From contig JBPCIX010000077.1 of assembly GCA_051005875.1 (NCBI GenBank), positions 9,537 through 73,536 on the forward strand: a DNA stretch of 64,000 nucleotides. The letters are read 5' to 3'. Of this stretch, positions 3,917 to 54,705 are shown piece by piece. The notes beneath the pieces were generated by a model that worked only from the letters and a program-made list of their open reading frames with translations, searched no databases and was not told where the DNA came from. The stretch's first letter is position 1, and the number at the start of each line of letters is the position of its first letter. The stretch is from Actinomycetota bacterium (GTDB lineage: Bacteria; Actinomycetota; CADDZG01; JAHWKV01). The translations under genes and the position numbers were made by a program.

Positions 3917-3940
3917 ACCTCCCCCCTAGGCCGCTCGAGC

Positions 3941-8214: not shown

Positions 8215-9419
8215 CCGAGCCAAGCTCTGACTCGGGCCACCTTGCGGCTGCCGATAGTGCCGGCGGGCACGCCGGTAACGACACCCACGCTAACGACACC
8301 CACGCTAACGACACCCACGGCGTCGAGACCTTGGCGATAATCGGTACTGGACTTATGGGTGGTTCTTTGGGGCTTGCCAGCCTTAAGAAGGGACTGGCCA
8401 AGCATGTTAGAGGGTTCGATCTCGAAGCTGAGCGCACCGCCTCTGCGTTAGAAAGGGGCGCCATAACTTTCGCCGCCGGGTCAATCGAAGAGGCGGTCGA
8501 TAACGCTCAAATAGTGATCATCGCTACGCCGGTTGGCGCAATCACCGAAGCCTTTGAGCAGGTTGCGAAATTCGCTGGTCACGGCCTGATTGTGTCCGAC
8601 GTTGGCAGCACCAAGGCCACGATAGTCGGACAGATCAGCGACGCTGTGCCTTCCGGGATTCACTTTGTCGGCGGACACCCGATCGCCGGGTCTGAAAAAG
8701 ATGGCATTGATGCTGCGACGCCTGACTTGTACGCAGGCTGTTTGTGGGTGCTCACGCCTACCCCGGAAACCGACCCCGCAGCCTACCGAACATTGATGAA
8801 TTTCATAACGGGCCTGGGCGCCCGAGTGATCTCGCTGGACCCCACGCGCCACGACGAGGCTATGGCTCTCACCAGCCATTTACCGCAGCTGATTTCCAGC
8901 ACCCTGATGGGATTTGCGGCAGATGTATCGGCGTCTCCGGATGGTTTGCCTCTGCTGGCAGCCGGAGGGTTTCTAGACATGACCAGAATCTCGGGCAGCT
9001 CCCCGAATTTATGGTTGGACATAGTTCGAGACAACCGACTTGCCTTGCTCAATGTTCTGCGTAGGTTTCGGACTGCACTGGCCACCGCCGAGGAAGAACT
9101 GGCGGCCGAGGACTGGGGCCGCCTGGGCGAAATGCTTAACTCGGCGCGGGAAGCAAGAAGGTCGCTTTCTGCGAAACCCGGCGTTCAACCCGAGGAGCTG
9201 GTCGAAATTCGAATTCCCGTTCCCGATCGCGCCGGCGTTCTGGCCGAGGTTACCAACACTGTTGGCGAGGCAGGAATCAATATCGAAGATATCGACATTG
9301 TGCATTCTCCCGAGGGAGGCAGAGGAGTTGTCCACCTGTCGGTCGCCGGGCGCCCCAATGCCGATGAGGCCCTTCGGGCCATCGCTCAAAAAGGGTTCAG
9401 CCCCGAATTGATTCGTTAG
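8211..9419 (+). CDS. tyrA: Prephenate dehydrogenase with C-terminal ACT domain
   Basis: IIGTGLMGGSLGLA Rossmann motif, TyrA core and a C-terminal ACT domain. ATG overlaps the aroH stop (ATGA). The N-terminus carries an NDTHA x3 repeat. Confidence 0.9.
   Translation: MTEPSSDSGHLAAADSAGGHAGNDTHANDTHANDTHGVETLAIIGTGLMGGSLGLASLKKGLAKHVRGFDLEAERTASALERGAITFAAGSIEEAVDNAQIVIIATPVGAITEAFEQVAKFAGHGLIVSDVGSTKATIVGQISDAVPSGIHFVGGHPIAGSEKDGIDAATPDLYAGCLWVLTPTPETDPAAYRTLMNFITGLGARVISLDPTRHDEAMALTSHLPQLISSTLMGFAADVSASPDGLPLLAAGGFLDMTRISGSSPNLWLDIVRDNRLALLNVLRRFRTALATAEEELAAEDWGRLGEMLNSAREARRSLSAKPGVQPEELVEIRIPVPDRAGVLAEVTNTVGEAGINIEDIDIVHSPEGGRGVVHLSVAGRPNADEALRAIAQKGFSPELIR
8277..8321. repeat. 15-bp x3 tandem repeat (aacgacacccacgct) in the tyrA 5' coding region
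   Basis: Three copies encoding NDTHA-NDTHA-NDTHG in the tyrA frame. Confidence 0.9.
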
Positions 9420-10703
9420 GTGAATCAAACCTTCGAACCCCTGGCGAGAATAGACGGAAAGCTCCGGGTGCCTGGAGACAAATCTATTTCACACCGCGCG
9501 CTCATCGCGGCCGCTTTCACCAATGGACCCTGCCGGATCAGGGGCGCGGCGACAGGGGAGGATGTCGCCTCGACGAGAAGATGCCTGGGGGCTCTTGGAT
9601 TTGAAAGTTCGAACCACGCCGACAATGAGATCGTCGTGACCGGGAACGGATGGAACCTCAGCGCCGAGGCGGATCTCGACGCCGGCAATTCAGGCACGAC
9701 GATGCGATTGCTCGCCGGCGCCGTTGCCGGAAGTATGGGCAGGTATCGCATTGGCGGCGATCAGTCGCTGGTCCGCCGGCCGATGGCAAGAATTGCGGCC
9801 CCGCTGAGGCTAATGGGTGCCACGCTTAATTTGTCGAAAGGCGACGTTGCCCCAATCGAAATTCAGGGAGGGCAATTACGGGGGATTGAATACCACCTGC
9901 CCGTGCCAAGCGCGCAGGTAAAAGGAGCGATTCTACTGGCCGGCATTCAAGCAGAAGGAATAACCACGATTGTCGAGTCCCAACCTTGCCGGGATCACAC
10001 TGAAAGAATGCTCGCCTGGCTGGGCGCAGACATCGCTGTGGGCGACGGGCAGACAGTTTTGTCCGGTCCAGGAGCTTTGCCTAAGAATGACGGCTTTGAG
10101 ATTGCCGTCCCAGGCGACTTTTCTTCAGCCGCTTATTTCTTAACTGCCGCCTGCCTGGCGAAAAAGAGTCGAGTGGAAGTAACCGGTGTCGGTCTGAACC
10201 CGGGCCGCACTGGATTACTGGACATACTAAGAGCCATGGGCGCCAACGTAGTTGAAGTAATCGACGAGACCGACCCCGAGCCAAGGGGCCGGTCTTATGC
10301 TGATTCAGCCGAGCTGCGTTCGACGGAGATCGGGGGTGATCTGATCCCGCGAAGCATCGACGAGCTTCCACTGGCGGCCTTGGCGGCAACCCAGGCCACC
10401 GGCACAACAGTAATAAGGGATGCCGCAGAATTGCGCCTTAAGGAATCGGATCGAATCGGTGTTCTGGCAAAGGGCCTAAGGACCCTGGGGGCCTCGGTTG
10501 AGGATGTGCCGGATGGTCTAATCATCGAGGGGCCGACACCTCTCACCGGAGGGTCCGTGGATTCCCACGGCGATCACAGAATCGCCCTTACCTTTGCAGT
10601 TGCGGCGACGGTTGCCGCCGGGCCAATCTCTATTCGAGGCTGGGAATGCACGTCTATTTCTTATCCCGGTTTCGAACAAGACCTACGAAAGGTCGCCCTT
10701 TGA
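9420..10703 (+). CDS. aroA: 3-phosphoshikimate 1-carboxyvinyltransferase (EPSP synthase)
   Basis: LRVPGDKSISHRALIAAAF and the overall EPSP synthase fold motifs. Confidence 0.95.
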   Translation: MNQTFEPLARIDGKLRVPGDKSISHRALIAAAFTNGPCRIRGAATGEDVASTRRCLGALGFESSNHADNEIVVTGNGWNLSAEADLDAGNSGTTMRLLAGAVAGSMGRYRIGGDQSLVRRPMARIAAPLRLMGATLNLSKGDVAPIEIQGGQLRGIEYHLPVPSAQVKGAILLAGIQAEGITTIVESQPCRDHTERMLAWLGADIAVGDGQTVLSGPGALPKNDGFEIAVPGDFSSAAYFLTAACLAKKSRVEVTGVGLNPGRTGLLDILRAMGANVVEVIDETDPEPRGRSYADSAELRSTEIGGDLIPRSIDELPLAALAATQATGTTVIRDAAELRLKESDRIGVLAKGLRTLGASVEDVPDGLIIEGPTPLTGGSVDSHGDHRIALTFAVAATVAAGPISIRGWECTSISYPGFEQDLRKVAL

Positions 10704-10742
10704 GCGACGCCCTCCAAGGTCGCCCTTTGAGCGACGCCCTAG
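10689..10742. repeat. 27-bp x2 tandem duplication spanning the aroA stop / cmk start junction
   Basis: aaggtcgccctttgagcgacgccct(cc) at 10689 and again at 10716. Each copy contains cctTTGAgc, i.e. the overlapped TTG/TGA. Confidence 0.9.
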
Positions 10743-11389
10743 ATGGCCGCAAGCCAATTCTGATTGCGATAGATGGTCCGGCCGGTTCGGGCAAAAGCAC
10801 GGTATCCCAGGCACTTTCGCTGAGGCTCGGCCTGGACCATGTCGATACCGGAGCAATGTACCGGGCGCTGGCATGGAAGGCGCTCTCAATCAATGTTCCG
10901 ACCCGAGACTCGGTATTGATAGCGGCCCTGTTGAAGTCAACGACCGTTGATCTAAAGGGCGAAGAGGTGATTCTTGACGGAAGAGACGTTTCCAGTGTTA
11001 TTCGCTCGCCGCAGGCCGGTGCCGCCGCTTCTAAGATGGCCAGGAATGCAGAGGTGCGCCGATGGCTGGTTGAGCGCCAGCGCGAGATCGCTCGCCGGAA
11101 TCCCGCCGGCGCCGTGGTTGAAGGGCGCGACATCGGGACGGTCGTCTTGCCCGACGCCGACCTCAAGATTTTTCTTACCGCAGCTCTGGATGAGCGTGCG
11201 CGGCGCAAAAACGATCCATCGGGATCGGGGACCGCGTGGCAGCTCGAAGATCTTGCCAGCCGGGACCTAAGAGACACCCAACGAAGCGCGTCGCCACTTG
11301 TGGCCGCCGAGGATGCCGTTGTTTTGGACACCACTGACCTGTCTGCGGAAGAAACTGTCGAAAAAATCCTGGAGATGGTGAATAGTTGA
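10700..11389 (+). CDS. cmk: Cytidylate kinase
   Basis: IAIDGPAGSGKST P-loop followed by GAMYRALAW. Start is ambiguous: ATG at 10646, TTG at 10700 (TTGA overlap with the aroA stop) or TTG at 10727 in the duplicated junction. Confidence 0.88.
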   Translation: MSDALQGRPLSDALDGRKPILIAIDGPAGSGKSTVSQALSLRLGLDHVDTGAMYRALAWKALSINVPTRDSVLIAALLKSTTVDLKGEEVILDGRDVSSVIRSPQAGAAASKMARNAEVRRWLVERQREIARRNPAGAVVEGRDIGTVVLPDADLKIFLTAALDERARRKNDPSGSGTAWQLEDLASRDLRDTQRSASPLVAAEDAVVLDTTDLSAEETVEKILEMVNS

Positions 11390-12747
11390 AAGTAGCTCGC
11401 ACCTATCCGAAGGTTGTTGTCATCGGCCGCCCGAATGTAGGGAAATCAACGCTCGTCAATCGGTTGTCCGCCAGAAGGAACTCGTTGGTGGGCCCCGCGG
11501 CGGGCCTGACTCGCGACAGGGTTGAAACGGAAGTCGAATGGCGCGGCCGCAAGTTCATCATTTCTGATACAGGTGGGCTAATTGAAACCCCGCGGGAATC
11601 GGCGGACGCCCCTCAGACAATCACCGGCAAAGTCTCTCAGACGGCCCTCAAGTCGGTCGACAGCGCCGATGTGGTCGTGTTTGTGGTTGACGCCCACTCC
11701 GGCACGACTTCAGAGGACTTACTGCTTGCGAAGCGTTTGAGGGGAGTGGAGATACCGGTGATCGTCGCTGTAAACAAGGTGGACGGGCAGGCAGCAGAGG
11801 CCTCTTCTTCGGAATTTTGGAGCCTGGGGCTTGGTGAGCCGATAGGTGTCTCGGCCCTGCACGGACGAAGCTCCGGCGAGCTGCTGGACAGAATAGACGA
11901 GGCCCTGCCCAGGCTCGATCCGGAAGTGCCGGTTGCCGACATTCCCTCGATAGCGATAGTCGGCCGGCCCAACGTGGGCAAGTCATCTTTGTTCAATAGA
12001 ATAATCGGCGAGAATCGAGCGATTGTGCACGACGAGCCCGGCACCACCCGAGATTCGATCGACAGCATTGTCGAGCTTGGCGGCAAGCATTACCGGTTTG
12101 TCGATACCGCCGGTCTTAGCCGCCGCTCCAAGACCAAAGGGGTCGCCGCGTGGAGCGCGGGCCGGACTCGTGCGGCATTAGAGCGAGCCGATCTTGCCAT
12201 CATCGTTCTCGATGCCAGCGAGGGCGCTACCGCTCAGGACCAGAAAATAGCCAGAGACGTTTCGGAGGCAGGGGTGGGGGCACTACTGGTATTGAACAAA
12301 TGGGATCTACTTGAAGACCCCGACGAGTCAAAGTTGATCGAAGCCACGGCCGCTGAGCGCCTGAAGTTCGTAGATTTTGCCCCGACCTTTCGAATATCCG
12401 CCCTCACGAAAAGAGGCATCCAAAAAATTCTGGCGCAACTCGAACCGGTCCTCGAAGCAAGACAAGTGCGGGTGGGAACGGGGAGCCTCAATCAATTGAT
12501 TCAGCAGGCTCACCAAAAGGCTCCGCCACCGAGGGACCGCAACCGCGCCGTAAGGGTGCTGTATGCCACGCAGGCCTCGACTGCTCCGCCTACATTCGTC
12601 CTGTTTTCGACCGGACCCCTGCCGGCGGCATGGCTGCGCTTTCTCGAACGGAGACTAAGAGAAGAGTACGGATTTTTCGGCAACCCGATTCGTATCGTAG
12701 TCAGAGAGCGAGAAAGACAAACCCGGCAAGCTAGTGGGCAGCACTAG
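11386..12747 (+). CDS. der: Ribosome-biogenesis GTPase Der (EngA)
   Basis: Two tandem GTPase domains (GRPNVGKST x2) and a KH-like C-terminus. TTG start overlaps the cmk stop (TTGA). Confidence 0.95.
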   Translation: MKVARTYPKVVVIGRPNVGKSTLVNRLSARRNSLVGPAAGLTRDRVETEVEWRGRKFIISDTGGLIETPRESADAPQTITGKVSQTALKSVDSADVVVFVVDAHSGTTSEDLLLAKRLRGVEIPVIVAVNKVDGQAAEASSSEFWSLGLGEPIGVSALHGRSSGELLDRIDEALPRLDPEVPVADIPSIAIVGRPNVGKSSLFNRIIGENRAIVHDEPGTTRDSIDSIVELGGKHYRFVDTAGLSRRSKTKGVAAWSAGRTRAALERADLAIIVLDASEGATAQDQKIARDVSEAGVGALLVLNKWDLLEDPDESKLIEATAAERLKFVDFAPTFRISALTKRGIQKILAQLEPVLEARQVRVGTGSLNQLIQQAHQKAPPPRDRNRAVRVLYATQASTAPPTFVLFSTGPLPAAWLRFLERRLREEYGFFGNPIRIVVRERERQTRQASGQH

Positions 12748-12766
12748 GCGGTAGACTCATAGAAAG

Positions 12767-12840
12767 CGGGCCGTAGCGCAGTTTGGTAGCGCACTCGGCT
12801 GGGGGCCGAGTGGTCGCAGGTTCAAATCCTGTCGGCCCGA
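12767..12840 (+). tRNA. tRNA-Pro (anticodon GGG)
   Basis: Cloverleaf read by hand: acceptor CGGGCCG/CGGCCCG, D-arm GCGC/GCGC, anticodon stem CTCGG/CCGAG with loop CTGGGGG, T-arm GCAGG-TTCAAAT-CCTGT. No encoded CCA. Confidence 0.85.
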
Positions 12841-15971: not shown

Positions 15972-16967
15972 TTAGTTCCTAACGCTATGGCTTCCAATGG
16001 GGCCGCCGGTCGAAGAACTATTCGCGCCGGGCGGGTCGGGGCGAAGTCTACTTGACACGCCCTCAAGTAAGGAGCGCACCAACCGGCAAAACGAGGGCCA
16101 GTTGACGAATACGATGACCACCGTGGCAATCCAGGCCGTGTAGTCCAAATGCATCGTCAGCCATATGCCTACATGTAACGCCACGGCCCCCGGCACGAAC
16201 AACCAGGCGGCTCGCGGACGCCACAACACCAACGGAAAGCCAAGCTCGAACGCCAAAGTCATCGTTGCAAAGACTCTGGCCAGCCAAACCCTTCCGGCGA
16301 TGAACAGGGCAAGTGCGTTTGGTTCTGGCTGCGAATCGCTTGACGCGTAAAGGATCCAGCGCATGTTGTCGCCAAAAGCCCAGGCCGGGCCGGAATTTCG
16401 AACCTTAGCAAGGCCGGCAAAAAAGTAGGCCCCTGCGACCACGATCATTGCCGTTCGAATAGGCCAACCGTACTTGACGCTTGCTTGGGGCGAAAGCATT
16501 CCCCGGCCCCGCCGCCGGGCGTCGATCGACCATGCATCTGCGCATGGGGCCAGCAAAAGGGGCGCCACACACAGGAGCAGCATGACGTCGTTATGCATGA
16601 CCTTGCCAATGCTTGTGTGCATGCCGTTGAGAAAAACCGCCGACGTCCAGGCGGTGGGAACACTCAATCTGGTGAAAAGCCCGGCAGCGGCCATCAAGGC
16701 CGAACCCACCCCAAGAATCTGGACCACGATAACAACCGGGCGCTGAGGCATCGAGGAAAACATGTTCATGAACGACAAGGGCCTAAAGAGCGCCGGCGGC
16801 TGTCCCGCCAGCTCCAAGTACAAACGCCTGGAAAGCCGGGCGGCAAGCACCAGGAACAGGCCAATCCGAAGAGCCGCAAGCCTTTCGGCGGATTCAACCG
16901 AAAATATCCAGGAATGGATACCGGCGGCCTTCCTTTTGGCCCAGGTCACCCTTTTAGCCCAGGTCAC
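15972..16967 (-). CDS. HTTM-domain (vitamin K-dependent gamma-carboxylase-like) membrane protein
   Basis: About 330 aa polytopic protein with LAALRIGLFLVLA, W/H-rich loops and architecture typical of bacterial HTTM proteins. GTG start overlaps the upstream stop (GTGA). N-terminal VTWAKR x2 repeat. Confidence 0.65.
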   Translation of the reverse strand: MTWAKRVTWAKRKAAGIHSWIFSVESAERLAALRIGLFLVLAARLSRRLYLELAGQPPALFRPLSFMNMFSSMPQRPVVIVVQILGVGSALMAAAGLFTRLSVPTAWTSAVFLNGMHTSIGKVMHNDVMLLLCVAPLLLAPCADAWSIDARRRGRGMLSPQASVKYGWPIRTAMIVVAGAYFFAGLAKVRNSGPAWAFGDNMRWILYASSDSQPEPNALALFIAGRVWLARVFATMTLAFELGFPLVLWRPRAAWLFVPGAVALHVGIWLTMHLDYTAWIATVVIVFVNWPSFCRLVRSLLEGVSSRLRPDPPGANSSSTGGPIGSHSVRN

Positions 16968-16975
16968 GCCCTTAA
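16934..16975. repeat. 18-bp x2 tandem duplication spanning the hypothetical-gene stop / HTTM start junction
   Basis: cttttggcccaggtcacc / cttttagcccaggtcacg. On the coding strand each copy carries GTGA; the product is VTWAKR-VTWAKR. Confidence 0.85.
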
Positions 16976-17458
16976 GCGCCTTACCGAGTTATCCCGGCAT
17001 TCAAATCGAAGGGTTGTGGTTGGGGGAGCGGCCCGCATTCCAGATCGCCTGGACAACCGCCACTCGGTGCTGTAGATGCGTACCGCCGGCAAGCCCCGCC
17101 CCGGCCCGCTTGCAGCCGCCGCCCAGGCTCGGCAGACAGCAACCTGTTCGGAGCGAGGCAGTCGTGAAAACTCTTTCAACACCTGGGGGAAACCGCGATA
17201 AGCGTAGGAAAGCCTGCCAAATGGTATGGGCAGCTCCGTTCCCGACAGATCGACTGCGGTTGCCTTCCAGGATGTCTGGCGATCGGTGCGTAGTTGGCTG
17301 AACAGTCTCCAACCGGTTAGGGGCCAAGCCTCCATCCCGAAATAGCCGCAGAACATGAACACCGTCAGGAAAACTGCGACGAACCATTGGGCGCTCCTGG
17401 GTACAACCCGGGTTACAACCTCGGGTCCAACGCCGGAGGGATTCGTCGAAGAACTCAT
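16964..17458 (-). CDS. Hypothetical protein with N-terminal TM helix, translationally coupled to the HTTM gene
   Basis: 164-aa ORF with one hydrophobic helix (WFVAVFLTVFMFCGYFG). 4-nt stop/start overlap with the HTTM gene. No recognisable domain. Confidence 0.5.
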   Translation of the reverse strand: MSSSTNPSGVGPEVVTRVVPRSAQWFVAVFLTVFMFCGYFGMEAWPLTGWRLFSQLRTDRQTSWKATAVDLSGTELPIPFGRLSYAYRGFPQVLKEFSRLPRSEQVAVCRAWAAAASGPGRGLPAVRIYSTEWRLSRRSGMRAAPPTTTLRFECRDNSVRRLRA

Positions 17459-22210: not shown

Positions 22211-22239
22211 TTGACACGGGAATTTCCCGGCCTTAACGT
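22211..22239 (+). promoter_or_regulatory. Candidate promoter with embedded palindrome upstream of the MerR (Rv1830-like) gene
   Basis: TTGACA (22211), then the 13-bp palindrome CGGGAAtTTCCCG, then TAACGT about 17 nt after the -35 hexamer; 47 nt upstream of the ATG. Confidence 0.3.
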
Positions 22240-22285
22240 GAGCCTGACGCAAACAATTTATCTGACGAGGGGTGTAAATTCACGC

Positions 22286-22801
22286 ATGGCTGAGAGCACG
22301 ACTGAGAGCACGGCTGAGAACGGGTTCCGAGGACCGCAGGTTTGCAAGGTAGTGGGCATCAGCTACCGGCAGTTGGATTACTGGGCTCGCACGGGCCTGG
22401 TTACCCCCAGTGTGCAGCCGGCGCAAGGGTCGGGCAGCCAAAGACTGTATTCGTTCGAGGATCTGGTGGATCTGAAGTTAATAAATAAACTGCTCCAGGC
22501 AGGGGTCAGTTTGCAGCGGGTCCGCGAAGCCATTAGTTATCTGCATTCCCTGGGGCAAAACCTAAAGGGAATTACCATCGCCAGCGATGGCGTTTCAGTC
22601 TATGCATGCAAGTCGGCTGAAGAGGTTTACGATGTACTAAGGCGCGGACAAGGAGTATTCGGAATTGCAATTGATCCTGTGATGAAGGAACTCGAAGGTT
22701 CGGTTTCACAACTCAAGCTGAAGGCCGAACCTCAGACTGCCCCAGTCGGCGCCCCGGTAGCGCCTGAAAAGCTGGGCGGCAAAACAGAGGTGGGGGAGTA
22801 G
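22286..22801 (+). CDS. MerR-family transcriptional regulator (Rv1830-like)
   Basis: VCKVVGISYRQLDYWARTGLV HTH_MerR. ATG at 22286; the track start at 22211 lies in the promoter. N-terminal ESTT/ESTA repeat. Confidence 0.75.
   Translation: MAESTTESTAENGFRGPQVCKVVGISYRQLDYWARTGLVTPSVQPAQGSGSQRLYSFEDLVDLKLINKLLQAGVSLQRVREAISYLHSLGQNLKGITIASDGVSVYACKSAEEVYDVLRRGQGVFGIAIDPVMKELEGSVSQLKLKAEPQTAPVGAPVAPEKLGGKTEVGE
22289..22324. repeat. 12-bp x3 tandem repeat in the MerR 5' coding region
   Basis: gctgagagcacg / actgagagcacg / gctgagaacggg encoding AEST-TEST-AENG. Confidence 0.8.
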
Positions 22802-40094: not shown

Positions 40095-41065
40095 TTCTTT
40101 GGCTCACACATCTCGGCAAGCCGCTCATGCATGACCTCGCGGAGCTCAGGCGGAGCGGTAACCTCAGCCCCGTCGCCGAAACTAAGAACCCAACCGATGA
40201 ACCCATCTACGTCGGTAACTTCAACGAACGCAATCGCCCCTCCCCCGGATTGCGACTGAAGATTAAGCCATGGAGATGAGCGCTCAGCCCACCAGGCAAC
40301 GGAAGGAGCAAACACCACCTCGGCCTGCATTATTCGGATTCCCTGGACAAAGGGAGGAGTTTCAAGAGCCGCCTCGGCTCGAAAGTTCTCGGGAGCTTCA
40401 AAATCCGCTCCGGATTTCGTCGGGTCCGTCTGACGGATGACGCCCTGAACACGATCAAGTCGAAAGGAACGTACCTCGGTGCTGCCATGGTCCATTCCCA
40501 CCAGATACCAAACTCCTTTGCGATGAACCAGACCGTAGGGATCGAGGATACGAACTGCCTCGCCACTGCGACTCCTGTACGCAAAGGTCAATGTCTTCTT
40601 TTCCGTTACTGCCTCGAAAGCAATTGGAAGGCTTGGAGCGGTAAGACTGAGGTCGGCGCTCAGCCAATGTGGGTTAGTAGATTGTTCAACGGGTTTGTTG
40701 TGACCCAATTTCAACATGGCCGACCGGGCCGTGGCGTCATCGCGCATGCGAACAAGCCCCGCGGCCAGCCAAAGGGCCGCAAGTTCATCGGGTGCAAGTT
40801 CCAGCTCCGGCAAGTAGTAGCGATCTTTGGGGATTCGATAGCCTTCTTCTAATTCCCAAACATCCATCGGCGCCCGCTCAACGGGAATGCCCATCTCATG
40901 AAGTTCCTGCTTGTCGCGCTCGAACATGCGCTTGAAGGCATCCCACTGGTCCTGGCCATATCCGGGAATGGTTTGGTGAATCTCTTGAAGACTTATTGGT
41001 CGTGAAGTCTCGAGCAACATGACGATCAGGTTGAGCAGCCTTTCGGCCTTTGAAGCGTTAGTCAA
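40091..41065 (-). CDS. pafB: Proteasome accessory factor PafB (HTH-WYL regulator)
   Basis: AERLLNLIVMLLETSRPISLQEI HTH and a WYL domain (GVWYLVGMD). 4-nt overlap with pafC. Confidence 0.85.
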   Translation of the reverse strand: MTNASKAERLLNLIVMLLETSRPISLQEIHQTIPGYGQDQWDAFKRMFERDKQELHEMGIPVERAPMDVWELEEGYRIPKDRYYLPELELAPDELAALWLAAGLVRMRDDATARSAMLKLGHNKPVEQSTNPHWLSADLSLTAPSLPIAFEAVTEKKTLTFAYRSRSGEAVRILDPYGLVHRKGVWYLVGMDHGSTEVRSFRLDRVQGVIRQTDPTKSGADFEAPENFRAEAALETPPFVQGIRIMQAEVVFAPSVAWWAERSSPWLNLQSQSGGGAIAFVEVTDVDGFIGWVLSFGDGAEVTAPPELREVMHERLAEMCEPKK

Positions 41066-42140
41066 TTTCGTAGATGAGCTTGCCCGCTACCAGGCCTGCG
41101 GCCCCTGCAGCCATAAAAAATTCGGGATCGTCGACGACGGACCGGCCCATTGTCTCGGGGGTCAAGTCGAATTCCTTAAGCGCCGGTTCGGTCTCCCAGG
41201 CGTCGACGATTCGAATATCGTGCATGTCGCTGAGCCCCTGGCCGGCAAGAGCAGCCATTACCTGGTTCAGCTTGTCGAGTTCGAAGTCGGGTACGGCAAT
41301 GGTCCCCCTGGCTACAGCTCCAAATCTTAGTGCGGCTAAACAATGCCGGCTGACGCCGTGGTGGCGGGGCCTTTGGTCGGCGAACGAAATTCTGAGCGCC
41401 GCGATTGGGCGGCCTCCAAGAGCGGCTGCGGCCGATACCACCTGCCCTTGCTCCATGCCCGTGTGGCCCAATAACGTATTTGTTCCGACGACCCCGGGTC
41501 CCACCGAGACAACCGTCACGTCGGCCTTTAGCACTTCACTGGCCGCCATGAGCGAACTGAAAATGTTGATGGACTCAAGATCACCGCCGAAGGCGTGTCC
41601 GCATGTGATCGTAGCCTGAATTAAGTCCCGGTTTTTCAGCTCTGCAACCACCCTGCTGTGCGCGATCGGCAAAGCGCCACCGTCGGTCATGATGTAGGCG
41701 ATGGTGAGGTCAGGGTCCATGTGTTTCAACATGGCTACCGCCGGCGCCACTTGCGAGTGCAGGCCACAGGCAACGACGGGCATACCGGCCAGCGAGTCCG
41801 CCTCGGCCAAAAGTTCGTGGTGCTCGCTTTCGGGGGCCTCAGCCACCAACGTGTCCATTTGCCAGGGCGTGTATCTGAGCTTCATGATGTGTCCCGGCGA
41901 CCTAGATTCGACTTTGTCCAGCCCCAGGTTCCACAAAACGAAGTCATCGCCCCCGGTCCCGAGGGCAAGTTCCACCGCGGTAGTATTTATGACCACCCTG
42001 TCCCCCACGGTCAGCTTGCCGGTCATAACCGGAAAGCTGGTAGCCTGACGATTCCTTCGGCCGAGCTTGACCGTCACCCGCTCGATCCCCTCACTGGAAT
42101 CGAGGACCTTGGCGACGACGCCTGTGCTAAATCTGGCCAA
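41058..42140 (-). CDS. DUF3866-family protein
   Basis: 360-aa soluble protein matching the DUF3866 architecture, located between pafA and pafB. TTG start. Confidence 0.65.
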   Translation of the reverse strand: MARFSTGVVAKVLDSSEGIERVTVKLGRRNRQATSFPVMTGKLTVGDRVVINTTAVELALGTGGDDFVLWNLGLDKVESRSPGHIMKLRYTPWQMDTLVAEAPESEHHELLAEADSLAGMPVVACGLHSQVAPAVAMLKHMDPDLTIAYIMTDGGALPIAHSRVVAELKNRDLIQATITCGHAFGGDLESINIFSSLMAASEVLKADVTVVSVGPGVVGTNTLLGHTGMEQGQVVSAAAALGGRPIAALRISFADQRPRHHGVSRHCLAALRFGAVARGTIAVPDFELDKLNQVMAALAGQGLSDMHDIRIVDAWETEPALKEFDLTPETMGRSVVDDPEFFMAAGAAGLVAGKLIYEID

Positions 42141-42150
42141 GCAGGTCCCT

Positions 42151-42195
42151 CCCGATCTTCATTCGCCCGATCTTCATTCGCCCGATCTTCATTCG
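42151..42195. repeat. 15-bp x3 tandem repeat (cccgatcttcattcg) between pafA stop and DUF3866 start
   Basis: Three perfect copies. On the coding (minus) strand each unit reads CGAATGAAGATCGGG and carries a TGA in frame with pafA. Confidence 0.9.
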
Positions 42196-42200
42196 ATTGG

Positions 42201-43553
42201 TCACAACGCTGAAATCAATCTTGCGACCCGCTCGTCGGTGTGCTTAAACGGATCCTTACAAAGAACCGTCCTTTGGGCCTGGTCATTCAATTTCAAGTGG
42301 ACCCAGTCAACGGTGAAATCTCGGCGTCTCTTCTTAGCCGCCCTGATGAACTCACCCCGCAATTTAGCCCGGGTGGTTTGCGGCGGGTTCAGCTTTGCCT
42401 CATCGATCTCCTGGTCGGTCACGTAGCGCTCGGCAAGGCCATTTCTCTCGAGTAAGTAATAAAGACTTCGGCGCCGTGACACATCATGGTAAGCAAGGTC
42501 CATCAGCGCGAGCTTAGGATGACCGAGCCCAATTTCATGCCTTGCCTGGAAGGCTTCCAGCAACTTGTACTTCATTACCCAATCGATCTTCGAATCAAGC
42601 TGCATAAAGTCATCCTCCAAAGCGACAAGGCACCCCTCCCAATCCTTAACTATTTGCTTCATTTCCGGATCGTCTCGACGATCAACGTACTTAGCTGCAC
42701 GGCTAAGGTACTCCCATTGCAACTCGATGGCCGAAGTCTCGCGGCCATTGGCGAGGCGCACTTTACGGCGGCAGGTTATATCGTGCGAAATCTCTCGTAT
42801 GGCCTTGATGGGATTCTCGAGGGTTAAGTCACGCATCACCACTCCTTCTTCAAGCATTCGAAGGAGCACCGACGTGGTGGCGACCTTGATCCAGCCGGAA
42901 TATTCGCTCATGTTCGAGTCACCGACGATGACATGAAGCCGGCGAAATTTCTCAGCATCTGCATGTGGCTCATCTCTGGTGTTAATAATTGGCCTGGAAC
43001 GGGTGGTGGCTGAAGAAACTCCTTCCCAGATATGTTCTGCCCTCTGGGAAATGCAGTACAGGGCGCCCCTGGCGGTCTGTAGAACTTTGCCCGCTCCGGA
43101 AAAGATTTGCCTGGAAACAAAAAACGGGATCATGACTTCGGCAAGTTTGCCGAACTCGCCGTAGCGGCTTACCAGGTAGTTCTCGTGACATCCGTAAGAG
43201 TTGCCCGCTGAGTCAGTATTGTTCTTAAAGAGGTAAACCTGCCCGGAAATACCTTCTTCCCTAAGGCGCATTTCAGCCGCGTTGACGAGCGATTCGAGTA
43301 TGCGCTCCCCCGCTTTATCATGGACAATAAGCTCACGAATGTCGTCACATTCGGGAGTTGCATATTCTGGATGCGATCCTACGTCGAGATAAAGCCTGGC
43401 CCCATTTTCCAGAAAGACATTAGACGATCGCCCCCACGACACAACCCGGCGGAACAGGTAACGGGCAACTTCATCGGGCGATAAACGACGCTGTCCGCGA
43501 AAAGTACAGGTAACCCCATATTCATTTTCCAGCCCGTAAATTCGTCTTTCCAA
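42201..43553 (-). CDS. pafA: Pup--protein ligase
   Basis: [17 protein letters not shown]-terminus and carboxylate-amine ligase fold motifs; paralogous to dop at 45413. Confidence 0.95.
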
Positions 43554-47034: not shown

Positions 47035-48321
47035 ATGTCATTAATGCCCCCTCCGGTAAGAAACGTGCCGGCGCCAAAGCACCGCCCCGACCGGCCTTCC
47101 AGGTTAAGGCCTTCCAGGTTAAGGCCACCCAGGTTAAGGCCAGGCGGAGTGGGACGAGGCCCCGGGAAGCACTCTTACCGCCCGCCTGCCAAGCGGCCCG
47201 GCCATGGGCGCTGGTGGCTCAGCCGCGCTAGACATTTTCTCGGCCGTCTGGATCTTGAAAGGGCTAGACGATCCTTCGCCCGGGCAAACGAAGGGCCTGC
47301 TTGGATTCGAATAGCTCGTGTGGCCATCGTCACTTCCGTTCCTGTTGGGTTGGCCGCGTTGCCCACGGCGACTTATGACCCTAAACCTCCAACGACAGTT
47401 TCAGTTTCCGGGAAGTTGGTTTTGCTGCCGCCTCAAGTAACGCTGTCATCGGCCTTCAAGCAATTGGGTGGCGGCCCGCAACCAGGCCGAATCATGAGCG
47501 TGCTCGGAAACCCCCTGGGTCCGGCCGACACATCGCCGATCGTAAGGCTGAACGGCAACCCAACATTGCCTTCAATTCAACTTCGAAACGGTGACCGCCT
47601 GGAATTCCAAAATGGCGCAGATAAACCAGAGCCGGCCGTTCAGGAAACCTATGCGCAAGCAGAAGGAAATCCTCAGTTCTTAATCGGCAGCGGGAGTGTG
47701 ACTGTGCTGAGAGGCACCTTGTCGGGTCAAATCCAAACGCTCGCATCCACCCCGGGGACCGGCGCCCCCCAGGTGGCATTGACCTTCGATGATGGTCCAA
47801 GCCCCCTGTACACGCCTGCGATCCTAGACATCTTGCGAAATGCTGGAGTAAAGGCGACTTTCTTTCCATTGGGAAGAACGGCTTCGCGAAACCCAGACCT
47901 TGTTCGGCGCCTAGTCGCCGAAGGCATGCACATCGGCAATCACAGCTGGGACCATCCCGTACTGACCAACAAGCCGGCCAAATTCGTAATCGATCAGCTA
48001 AAAAGGTCCGAAGATACGCTCAGCGCGCTCGGGGCTTCGGTAAGTGTTTTTCGACCCCCCTTCGGTAGCTTTCAGCCTTCCACCCTCAAAACCGCGGAAT
48101 CCCTCCACCTGAAGACGGTGATTTGGAGCGTGGACTCACTCGATTGGAAAAAGACCGGAACGGAGCAAATCGTTGACCGCGTTCTTTCATTGGTGCGACC
48201 GGGTTCGATAATTCTCCTTCACGACGGTGGCGGAAACAGAAGTCAGACAGTAGCTGCCCTCCCACAAATAATCTCAACCCTTAAAGCGCGCGGCTACCAA
48301 TTCGCCCTCTTGGGAGGCTAA
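47035..48321 (+). CDS. Polysaccharide deacetylase (CE4/NodB-homology) with N-terminal membrane anchor
   Basis: LTFDDGP, HSWDHP and LLHDGG NodB motifs; TM helix (VAIVTSVPVGLAAL). The basic N-terminal tail carries an RPSRL x3 repeat. Confidence 0.8.
   Translation: MSLMPPPVRNVPAPKHRPDRPSRLRPSRLRPPRLRPGGVGRGPGKHSYRPPAKRPGHGRWWLSRARHFLGRLDLERARRSFARANEGPAWIRIARVAIVTSVPVGLAALPTATYDPKPPTTVSVSGKLVLLPPQVTLSSAFKQLGGGPQPGRIMSVLGNPLGPADTSPIVRLNGNPTLPSIQLRNGDRLEFQNGADKPEPAVQETYAQAEGNPQFLIGSGSVTVLRGTLSGQIQTLASTPGTGAPQVALTFDDGPSPLYTPAILDILRNAGVKATFFPLGRTASRNPDLVRRLVAEGMHIGNHSWDHPVLTNKPAKFVIDQLKRSEDTLSALGASVSVFRPPFGSFQPSTLKTAESLHLKTVIWSVDSLDWKKTGTEQIVDRVLSLVRPGSIILLHDGGGNRSQTVAALPQIISTLKARGYQFALLGG
47095..47139. 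repeat. 15-bp x3 tandem repeat (ccttccaggttaagg) in the deacetylase 5' coding region
   Basis: Three copies (the third is ccacccaggttaagg) encoding RPSRL-RPSRL-RPPRL. Confidence 0.85.
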
Positions 48322-48353
48322 AGCTTGGGAGGCTAAAGCTTGGGACGCTAAAA
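48309..48353. repeat. 15-bp x3 tandem repeat (cttgggaggctaaag) spanning the deacetylase stop codon
   Basis: Copy 1 contains the TAA stop; copies 2 and 3 add in-frame TAAs at 48334 and 48349. Confidence 0.85.
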
Positions 48354-54588: not shown

Positions 54589-54674
54589 GTCGGAGTGGCG
54601 GAACTTGGTAGACGCGCTAGGTTGAGGGCCTAGTGGGCGCATAGCCCATAGGGGTTCAAATCCCCTCTCCGACA
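54589..54674 (+). tRNA. tRNA-Leu (anticodon GAG)
   Basis: Acceptor GTCGGAG/CTCCGAC, anticodon stem CTAGG/CCTAG with loop TTGAGGG, long variable arm, T-arm AGGGG-TTCAAAT-CCCCT. Confidence 0.85.
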
Positions 54675-54705
54675 CTCTCCCCTCTCCGACACTCCCCTCT
54701 CCGAC
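54662..54705. repeat. Triplication of the tRNA-Leu 3' end (cccctctccgac) in tandem
   Basis: cccctctccgac occurs at 54662 (inside the tRNA), 54679 and 54694, with periods of 17 and 15 bp. Confidence 0.85.

Follow-up and report, generated by a model that had tools for sequence, protein, structure and literature searches.

Tandem duplication of the overlapped aroA–cmk stop/start junction in an actinobacterial operon

The aroA and cmk genes of an Actinomycetota bacterium (GenBank assembly GCA_051005875.1, contig JBPCIX010000077.1) meet in a four-base overlap, TTGA, in which the aroA stop codon and a cmk start codon share bases. We analysed a stretch of 64,000 nucleotides around this site (the window) and found that the overlapped junction occurs twice in tandem, with both reading frames kept, while relatives carry it once. 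It appears likely that a recent, lineage-specific, in-frame tandem duplication of an ancestral TTGA overlap took place here, probably by slippage, that it is near-neutral, and that the first of the two resulting TTG codons is the one mainly used to start Cmk.

The repeat at the aroA–cmk junction

Across positions 10680-10760 the window reads ...gacctacga AAGGTCGCCCTTTGAGCGACGCCCTCC AAGGTCGCCCTTTGAGCGACGCCCTAG atggccgcaag..., and the coordinates of the two copies and of the codons they contain are collected in Table 1. The first 25 bases of the copies are identical and the last two are not (CC at 10714-15, AG at 10741-42), the copy-to-copy junction having the sequence CCCTCCAAGG. The initial annotation had described a 27-bp unit present twice in tandem; the tandem duplication is real, and it consists of 25 identical bases followed by a two-base difference, not of a perfect 27 + 27. 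Tandem Repeats Finder reports the array at 10689-10740 with a period of 27, 1.9 copies, 100% matches and a score of 104. As in slippage-type tandem duplications and variable-number tandem repeats (VNTR), the copies are arranged head to tail with an identity beyond chance: with up to three mismatches tolerated, the 25-mer is found in the 64-kb window at 10689 and 10716 only, and 100 shuffles of the sequence gave 0 matches.

Both frames run through the duplication undisturbed. Copy 1 contains the aroA-frame TGA overlapped by the cmk-frame TTG, which is the four-base NTGA arrangement that defines a coupled gene pair (TTGA, 10700-10703), and copy 2 recreates the TGA in the aroA frame and the TTG in the cmk frame. 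Our frame check agrees with the initial annotation on each of these codons, and also bears out its broader claim that the whole stop/start overlap has been duplicated in both frames; a weak ribosome-binding motif was copied along with it, and the relatives described below are single-copy.

Table 1 Features of the window at the aroA–cmk junction and at a second duplicated junction
Feature	Positions	Strand	Description
aroA (5-enolpyruvylshikimate-3-phosphate (EPSP) synthase)	9420..10703	+	from the open reading frame (ORF) list; Pfam PF00275; 5' end uncertain
ATG in the cmk frame, within aroA	10646..10648	+	rejected as start
Repeat copy 1, AAGGTCGCCCTTTGAGCGACGCCCTCC	10689..10715	+	last four aroA codons, working aroA stop and first cmk-frame TTG
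AAGG, weak Shine-Dalgarno-like motif	10689..10692	+	7-nt spacer to TTG 10700; recurs at 10716-10719 before TTG 10727
First candidate cmk start, TTG	10700..10702	+	4-base overlap with the aroA stop; 229-aa Cmk; Prodigal call on the Logan contig (P0121)
cmk (cytidylate kinase), drawn from the first TTG	10700..11389	+	Pfam PF02224; P-loop GPAGSGKST encoded at 10775-10801
Working aroA stop, TGA	10701..10703	+	overlapped by TTG 10700-10702, giving TTGA; AroA length 427 aa versus 426 aa in L001
Repeat copy 2, AAGGTCGCCCTTTGAGCGACGCCCTAG	10716..10742	+	10716-10740 same as copy 1; final two bases differ
Second candidate cmk start, TTG	10727..10729	+	23 nt past the aroA stop; 220-aa Cmk; NCBI annotation (P0001)
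Copied TGA in the aroA frame	10728..10730	+	relic stop; beyond the reach of ribosomes translating aroA
TTGA, cmk stop/der start overlap	11386..11389	+	next junction in the same tightly packed operon
Duplicated junction, GTGAcctgggctaaaagg GTGAcctgggccaaaagg	16932..16967	-	17/18 identical; context ...cttaagggc GTGAcctgggctaaaagg GTGAcctgggccaaaagg aaggcc...

A separately built Logan contig (L082, run SRR33880242) is 100% identical to the window over 8300-12813 (4514 bp), repeat included. Logan assembly uses k=31; this is longer than the 25-base repeat, so the path through the repeat would be unambiguous. The duplication is confirmed as real DNA. One might suspect an artefact of assembly or sequencing, or several strains collapsed into one sequence, given that the window comes from a metagenome-assembled genome, that a single sample carries the repeat (exact look-ups of AroA and Cmk lead to the Logan contig of one run), and that this contig breaks inside another array at 8300, a hint of heterogeneity in the sample. 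We regard such an origin as extremely improbable, because two different assemblies are identical over 4.5 kb, sequencing reads are far longer than the 25-mer, the repeat keeps the frame and makes biological sense, and comparable arrays occur throughout the window.

Single-copy junctions in relatives and the encoded proteins

The closest relatives, L001 and L095, are two contigs from one JGI sample (3300015209). L001 shares the gene order scpB-rluB-chorismate mutase-tyrA-aroA-cmk-der and its DNA is 74% identical over 6.2 kb, with Cmk 78% and AroA 71% identical; the AroA of L095 is also 71% identical. The initial annotation had proposed aligning the aroA–cmk junctions of relatives in search of single-copy ancestors, and this alignment shows one TTGA at the homologous place in both contigs, as cgaaaggttgc(g/a)tcTTGAgcgg. 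Cmk begins at that TTG, and L001 has no other canonical in-frame start ahead of the P-loop. In the alignment, the single junction of these two contigs pairs with the 5' half of repeat copy 1, the AroA C-terminus being RKVAS* in both contigs and RKVAL* in the window. Protein lengths match a nine-codon insertion, with AroA at 427 versus 426 aa, and Cmk at 220 or 229 aa versus 221 aa in the relative P0002.

Single overlaps of the same kind are found at the aroA–cmk junction elsewhere, as ATGA in L096 (in frame with Cmk), L002 and L068 (same phylum), and as GTGA in L013 and L079 (same phylum) and in L059, a Bacillota genome. Eight relatives in all keep the four-base overlap in the homologous position, as expected of a coupled pair. 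Since the relatives have a single NTGA, comparison of the sequences indicates that the overlap is ancestral and that its doubling is specific to the lineage of the window. The single-copy state of L001 and L095 makes the doubled junction the derived state, as in slippage-type duplications and VNTR.

Start calls at the aroA–cmk junction disagree between databases. In L096 (3787-3805), the gene caller placed the Cmk start at a TTG 18 nt downstream of the in-frame ATGA/aroA-stop overlap.

Wider searches did not extend this set of close relatives. A scan of species-representative genomes yielded no Cmk match above 55% identity, and a protein-based metagenome scan nothing above 48% identity across the full Cmk length. 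A conserved 32-base DNA pattern had no match in a metagenome collection, not even in L001's own sample, so that the collection is a subset.

AroA matches Pfam PF00275 with 351 bits (cut-off 22.8; E 1e-104), residues 7-422 covering positions 3-417 of the 417 in the profile. Its first possible start is GTG 9420, while Prodigal places the 5' end at 9468 on the Logan contig. The match of Cmk to Pfam PF02224 scores 216 bits (cut-off 26; E 6e-64), residues 22-228 of the 229-aa form covering positions 1-210 of 211. The genes are closely packed: four bases are shared by chorismate mutase and tyrA, tyrA and aroA follow each other with no gap, and aroA–cmk and cmk–der again have four-base overlaps.

The AroA product is unchanged by the duplication, as it stops at the first TGA. 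The nine residues added to Cmk by a start at TTG 10700 are SDALQGRPL, and they lie N-terminal to the PF02224 domain. An AlphaFold model of Cmk (mean predicted local distance difference test score (pLDDT) 87.5, predicted template modelling score 0.83) has low confidence for residues 1-19, with the first beta strand at 20-25, and N-terminal tails among Cmk homologues range from 0 to ~66 residues. Because the extra residues fall outside the domain and in the low-pLDDT tail, and tails vary among homologues, the insertion is probably tolerated.

Candidate start codons of cmk

From the upstream in-frame stop (10499) to the P-loop, the cmk frame has just three canonical starts, ATG 10646, TTG 10700 and TTG 10727. 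The corresponding N-termini are MHVYFLSRFRTRPTKGRPLSDALQGRPLSDALDGRKP... (247 aa; peptide MHVYFLSR...), MSDALQGRPLSDALDGRKP... (229 aa; expected peptide start (M)SDALQGRPLSDALDGR...) and MSDALDGRKP... (220 aa). According to the initial annotation, Cmk would gain zero, one or two copies of GRPLSDALx depending on the start; this is approximately right for the 220-, 229- and 247-aa forms, with the proviso that ATG 10646 is very unlikely to serve as a start. For P0001, the Cmk in the NCBI annotation (220 aa, two accessions), the start is TTG 10727; a single-copy allele would code for the very same 220-aa protein. The counterpart of P0001, P0121 (229 aa), from the Logan contig of SRR33880242, belongs to the same protein cluster and starts at TTG 10700.

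Strength of the Shine-Dalgarno motif does not separate the two TTG codons. Their motifs both have a duplex energy of -3.8 kcal/mol with the anti-Shine-Dalgarno sequence, the mean background in the window being -3.0, so that a ranking is uninformative: the motifs are identical by construction and near background. L001 has the same AAGG motif with the same energy (-3.8 kcal/mol). The weak motif, the near-background energy and the same value in L001 suggest that cmk translation relies on coupling and not on a strong ribosome-binding site of its own.

Co-directional gene pairs with four-base overlaps (ATGA, GTGA, TTGA) are coupled by termination-reinitiation (Huber et al. 2019, PMC6728339; Huber et al. 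2023, PMC10666635). For six native gene pairs, reinitiation was found to depend strongly on distance: ~20 nt nearly abolishes it, and 38 additional nt cut it by 80-100% in E. coli (Huber et al. 2023, PMC10666635). A 2025 review agrees on the steep distance dependence of coupling (PMC12548453). TTG 10700 keeps the ancestral overlap with the real stop and is homologous to the sole possible canonical start in L001, while TTG 10727 lies 23 nt away. As reinitiation falls with distance, TTG 10700 would be the main coupled start, giving the 229-aa Cmk, and some 220-aa product is possible.

A second reading, which shares the same duplication origin, has Cmk made only from TTG 10727, so that the part of copy 1 past the aroA stop would form a new 23-nt spacer and cmk would be uncoupled from aroA. 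The 220-aa product has the ancestral length and type of N-terminus (221 aa in P0002), AAGG and its spacing are the same as at TTG 10700, and this start is the choice of the Prokaryotic Genome Annotation Pipeline (PGAP). We nevertheless consider this reading unlikely, if worth keeping in mind: with a Shine-Dalgarno-like motif that does not rise above background, independent initiation is expected to be weak; reinitiation is already steeply reduced by ~20 nt (PMC10666635); and TTG 10700, in frame and unblocked for initiation, retains the exact geometry of eight relatives.

An ATG start at 10646 would give a 247-aa Cmk with two full GRPLSDALx repeats and a 58-nt overlap with aroA. It would use the strongest start codon in an open frame, with GAGG 6 nt upstream and a duplex energy of -6.6 kcal/mol. 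However, in L001 and L095 an in-frame TGA follows the homologous ATG after nine codons, so that this start is not conserved. Conserved AroA codons (EGWEC, with the ATG within GWEC) account for both the ATG and the GAGG, no gene caller chooses this start, and an overlap of such length occurs in no relative compared. We rejected ATG 10646 as the cmk start and give it hardly any credence.

Origin of the duplication and the tandem arrays of the window

Returning to a duplication with TTG 10700 mainly in use, the following sequence of events can be proposed. Replication slippage, or a related copying error, would have duplicated the junction with a period of 27 in a genome rich in short tandem duplications. 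The duplication would persist as a near-neutral change, AroA still ending at its first TGA. Ribosomes finishing aroA would mostly restart at TTG 10700, yielding the 229-aa Cmk with nine extra residues in a floppy tail, while TTG 10727 would give the 220-aa form of ancestral length from a start displaced 23 nt beyond the stop. The length, a multiple of three, would keep reinitiating ribosomes in the cmk frame and hence preserve cmk–der coupling.

Slipped-strand mispairing gives rise to short in-frame tandem duplications and minisatellites, as Levinson and Gutman reportedly described in 1987. The copies in the window resemble such minisatellites in being head-to-tail, near-identical, absent from relatives, a multiple of three in length and accompanied by many arrays in the same genome; they differ in the two-base boundary difference, and the arrays of the window in favouring period 15 and gene 3' ends.

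Several points weigh against this account, in which we infer slippage, neutrality and start usage. The difference between CC and AG falls exactly at the copy boundary, which does not fit clean slippage, and two random substitutions would be adjacent only ~8% of the time (27/351 pairs). A length that is a multiple of three arises without selection with a chance of 1 in 3. The coupling-distance data come from E. coli and Haloferax, not from Actinomycetota. Gene callers disagree on the cmk start (NCBI/PGAP 10727 versus Prodigal 10700), a disagreement that reflects a real start ambiguity and that the duplication explains. That the duplication is recent and that its copy number may vary is likewise something we infer. 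The two-base boundary difference may record junctional filler, a template switch or another repair process. A simple origin from microhomology slippage was considered and not adopted: the flanks AAGGTCGC and ATGGCCGC match at 6/8 positions, but the CC junction is not reproduced.

The repeat could also be a selected element, such as a mobile unit like the mycobacterial interspersed repetitive units (MIRU), a site bound by protein or RNA, a regulatory hairpin, or a means of making Cmk with two N-termini. A small inverted repeat, GTCGC-N7-GCGAC, is present in each unit and has the TTG inside its loop, and the arrays of the window cluster at gene ends. MIRU-VNTR loci are tandem units of 40-100 bp at operon junctions, intergenic in position, with small ORFs that overlap the flanking stop and start in the four-base manner of coupled genes (PMC12548453). 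Such a role is nonetheless very unlikely. The predicted fold of the repeat is not significantly better than that of shuffles (z = -1.6), no Rfam family matches it (the only matches in the window being two tRNAs), and no promoter or terminator patterns were found within it. The unit is absent from the relatives and derives from local sequence homologous to their junction. With no further copy in the 64 kb at up to three mismatches, it does not show MIRU-like dispersal in the window, and the mobile-element reading was rejected on account of this uniqueness and local derivation.

MIRUs are nevertheless the nearest described analogue of the aroA–cmk duplication. Both consist of tandem units at an operon junction in an actinobacterium, with frame and four-base geometry kept. 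MIRUs are dispersed and apparently mobile, whereas the 27-mer is unique in the window, junction-derived and shorter. As for the small ORF of MIRUs, the 27-mer does reproduce the TTGA, but in frame with cmk itself and with no separate small ORF. Compared with known coupled pairs, aroA/cmk has the classic NTGA, kept in eight relatives and set in a tightly packed chain, but here the overlap is tandem-doubled, so that one stop faces two identical starts; coupling at this site is predicted from the sequence. The arrangement also resembles genes with alternative N-terminal proteoforms, in that two in-frame starts 27 nt apart could give 229- and 220-aa Cmk, although the two forms, and any effect of a disordered nine-residue tail, are hypothetical here. 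No account of a duplicated overlap junction came up in literature searches.

The aroA–cmk duplication is not unique in the window, where a second four-base junction has been doubled in like manner. An 18-bp unit, GTGACCTGGGCYAAAAGG, occurs twice on the minus strand at 16932-16967. Its first GTGA is the stop of a 164-aa gene (16964..17458) and overlaps the start of an HTTM-like gene (15972..16967). In the relative L097 the homologous place holds one ATGA only, and the L097 protein is 6 aa shorter at the N-terminus. A look-up of the 164-aa protein returned no record.

The window as a whole is loaded with tandem arrays. At a Tandem Repeats Finder score of at least 50 it holds 12 arrays in 64 kb, compared with 3.4 per 64 kb in 473 kb of control loci (~3.5x). 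A period of 15 is seen in 8/12 of them, most with ~3 copies, and in 0/25 of the control arrays; these unrelated period-15 arrays start at 3925, 8276, 42151, 47093, 48309, 52641, 54661 and 62868. A gene 3' end is found no more than 10 nt away from seven of the 12 arrays; arrays placed at random average 0.81, and 0/20,000 random placements reach seven. Overlapped junctions lie inside arrays in two of ~10 cases against 0.08 expected (P ~0.003). The arrays at 8276, 10689 and 16932 were checked against a relative, and all three are absent there.

Individual arrays take varied forms. In tRNA-Leu(gag) (54589-54675), the last ~15 nt (TCCCCTCTCCGAC, the 3' strands of the T stem and acceptor stem) occur three times in tandem at 54661-54705; GCCA, with the encoded CCA end, follows the third copy only, while ARAGORN and Rfam end the tRNA in the first. 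At 48309-48352, CTTGGGAGGCTAAAG occurs three times, the first copy holding the TAA stop (48319-48321) of a polysaccharide deacetylase gene (47035..48321), so that the last codons and stop of this gene are repeated into its 3' region. The same gene has a three-copy 15-bp array near its 5' end (47093-47141), just before a possible AGGCGGA-GTG start. On the minus strand, CGAATGAAGATCGGG occurs three times at 42151-42195, filling the 60-nt gap after the stop of 42201..43553, and is followed by a strong GGGAGGG ribosome-binding motif and the TTG start (42140) of 41058..42140.

Two further arrays lie towards gene starts. A perfect 15-bp array of 2.9 copies at 8276-8319 repeats a five-residue motif three times in the N-terminal tail of tyrA (...HAGNDTHANDTHANDTHG...), a tail that lacks the repetition in L001; the Logan contig L082 begins inside this array, at 8300, which may reflect copy-number heterogeneity in the sample. 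A 12-bp array of 2.5 copies (CTGAGAGCACGA) at 22290-22319 starts one base after an ATG (cgcATGG...), which may be the true start of ORF 22211..22801 and would make this another gene-boundary array. In Acidobacteriota control loci (two of them labelled Vicinamibacterales) the arrays have periods of 7 or 14, several immediately flanking cmk (L004 3190-3221; L005 2462-2494 and 3145-3175; L029 4501-4623). Lineages may thus differ in the tandem-array periods they favour.

The clustering at gene ends is most plainly explained by selection acting as a filter: when a duplication straddles a gene boundary, both proteins can still be made, and such events therefore survive. The filter does not explain the preference for period 15 or the array at a tRNA 3' end. 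It is conceivable, if rather improbable, that a lineage process preferentially copies gene 3' ends and stop/start junctions in tandem, either through an undescribed mutational or repair mechanism or under selection for uncoupling or retuning operon translation. Such a process would account for the two duplicated overlapped junctions, the triplicated tRNA-Leu 3' end and the triplicated stop region, with a period mostly of 15 bp and 7/12 arrays near 3' ends.

By itself, the aroA–cmk duplication changes little, as AroA is untouched and Cmk acquires at most nine floppy residues. It belongs to a known class of events, short in-frame tandem duplications at translationally coupled junctions, and is most likely near-neutral. 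It nonetheless sets up a natural experiment, in which one stop faces two sequence-identical start sites (same motif, spacer and TTG), one in four-base overlap and one 23 nt downstream. The in vivo ratio of 229-aa to 220-aa Cmk would gauge reinitiation at the overlap against downstream or fresh initiation in an actinobacterium, with no need for an engineered construct. The duplication further illustrates how overlapped junctions can give rise to N-terminal tails and to spacers between genes. Of these observations, the concentration of arrays near gene ends is the one from which something new could follow.

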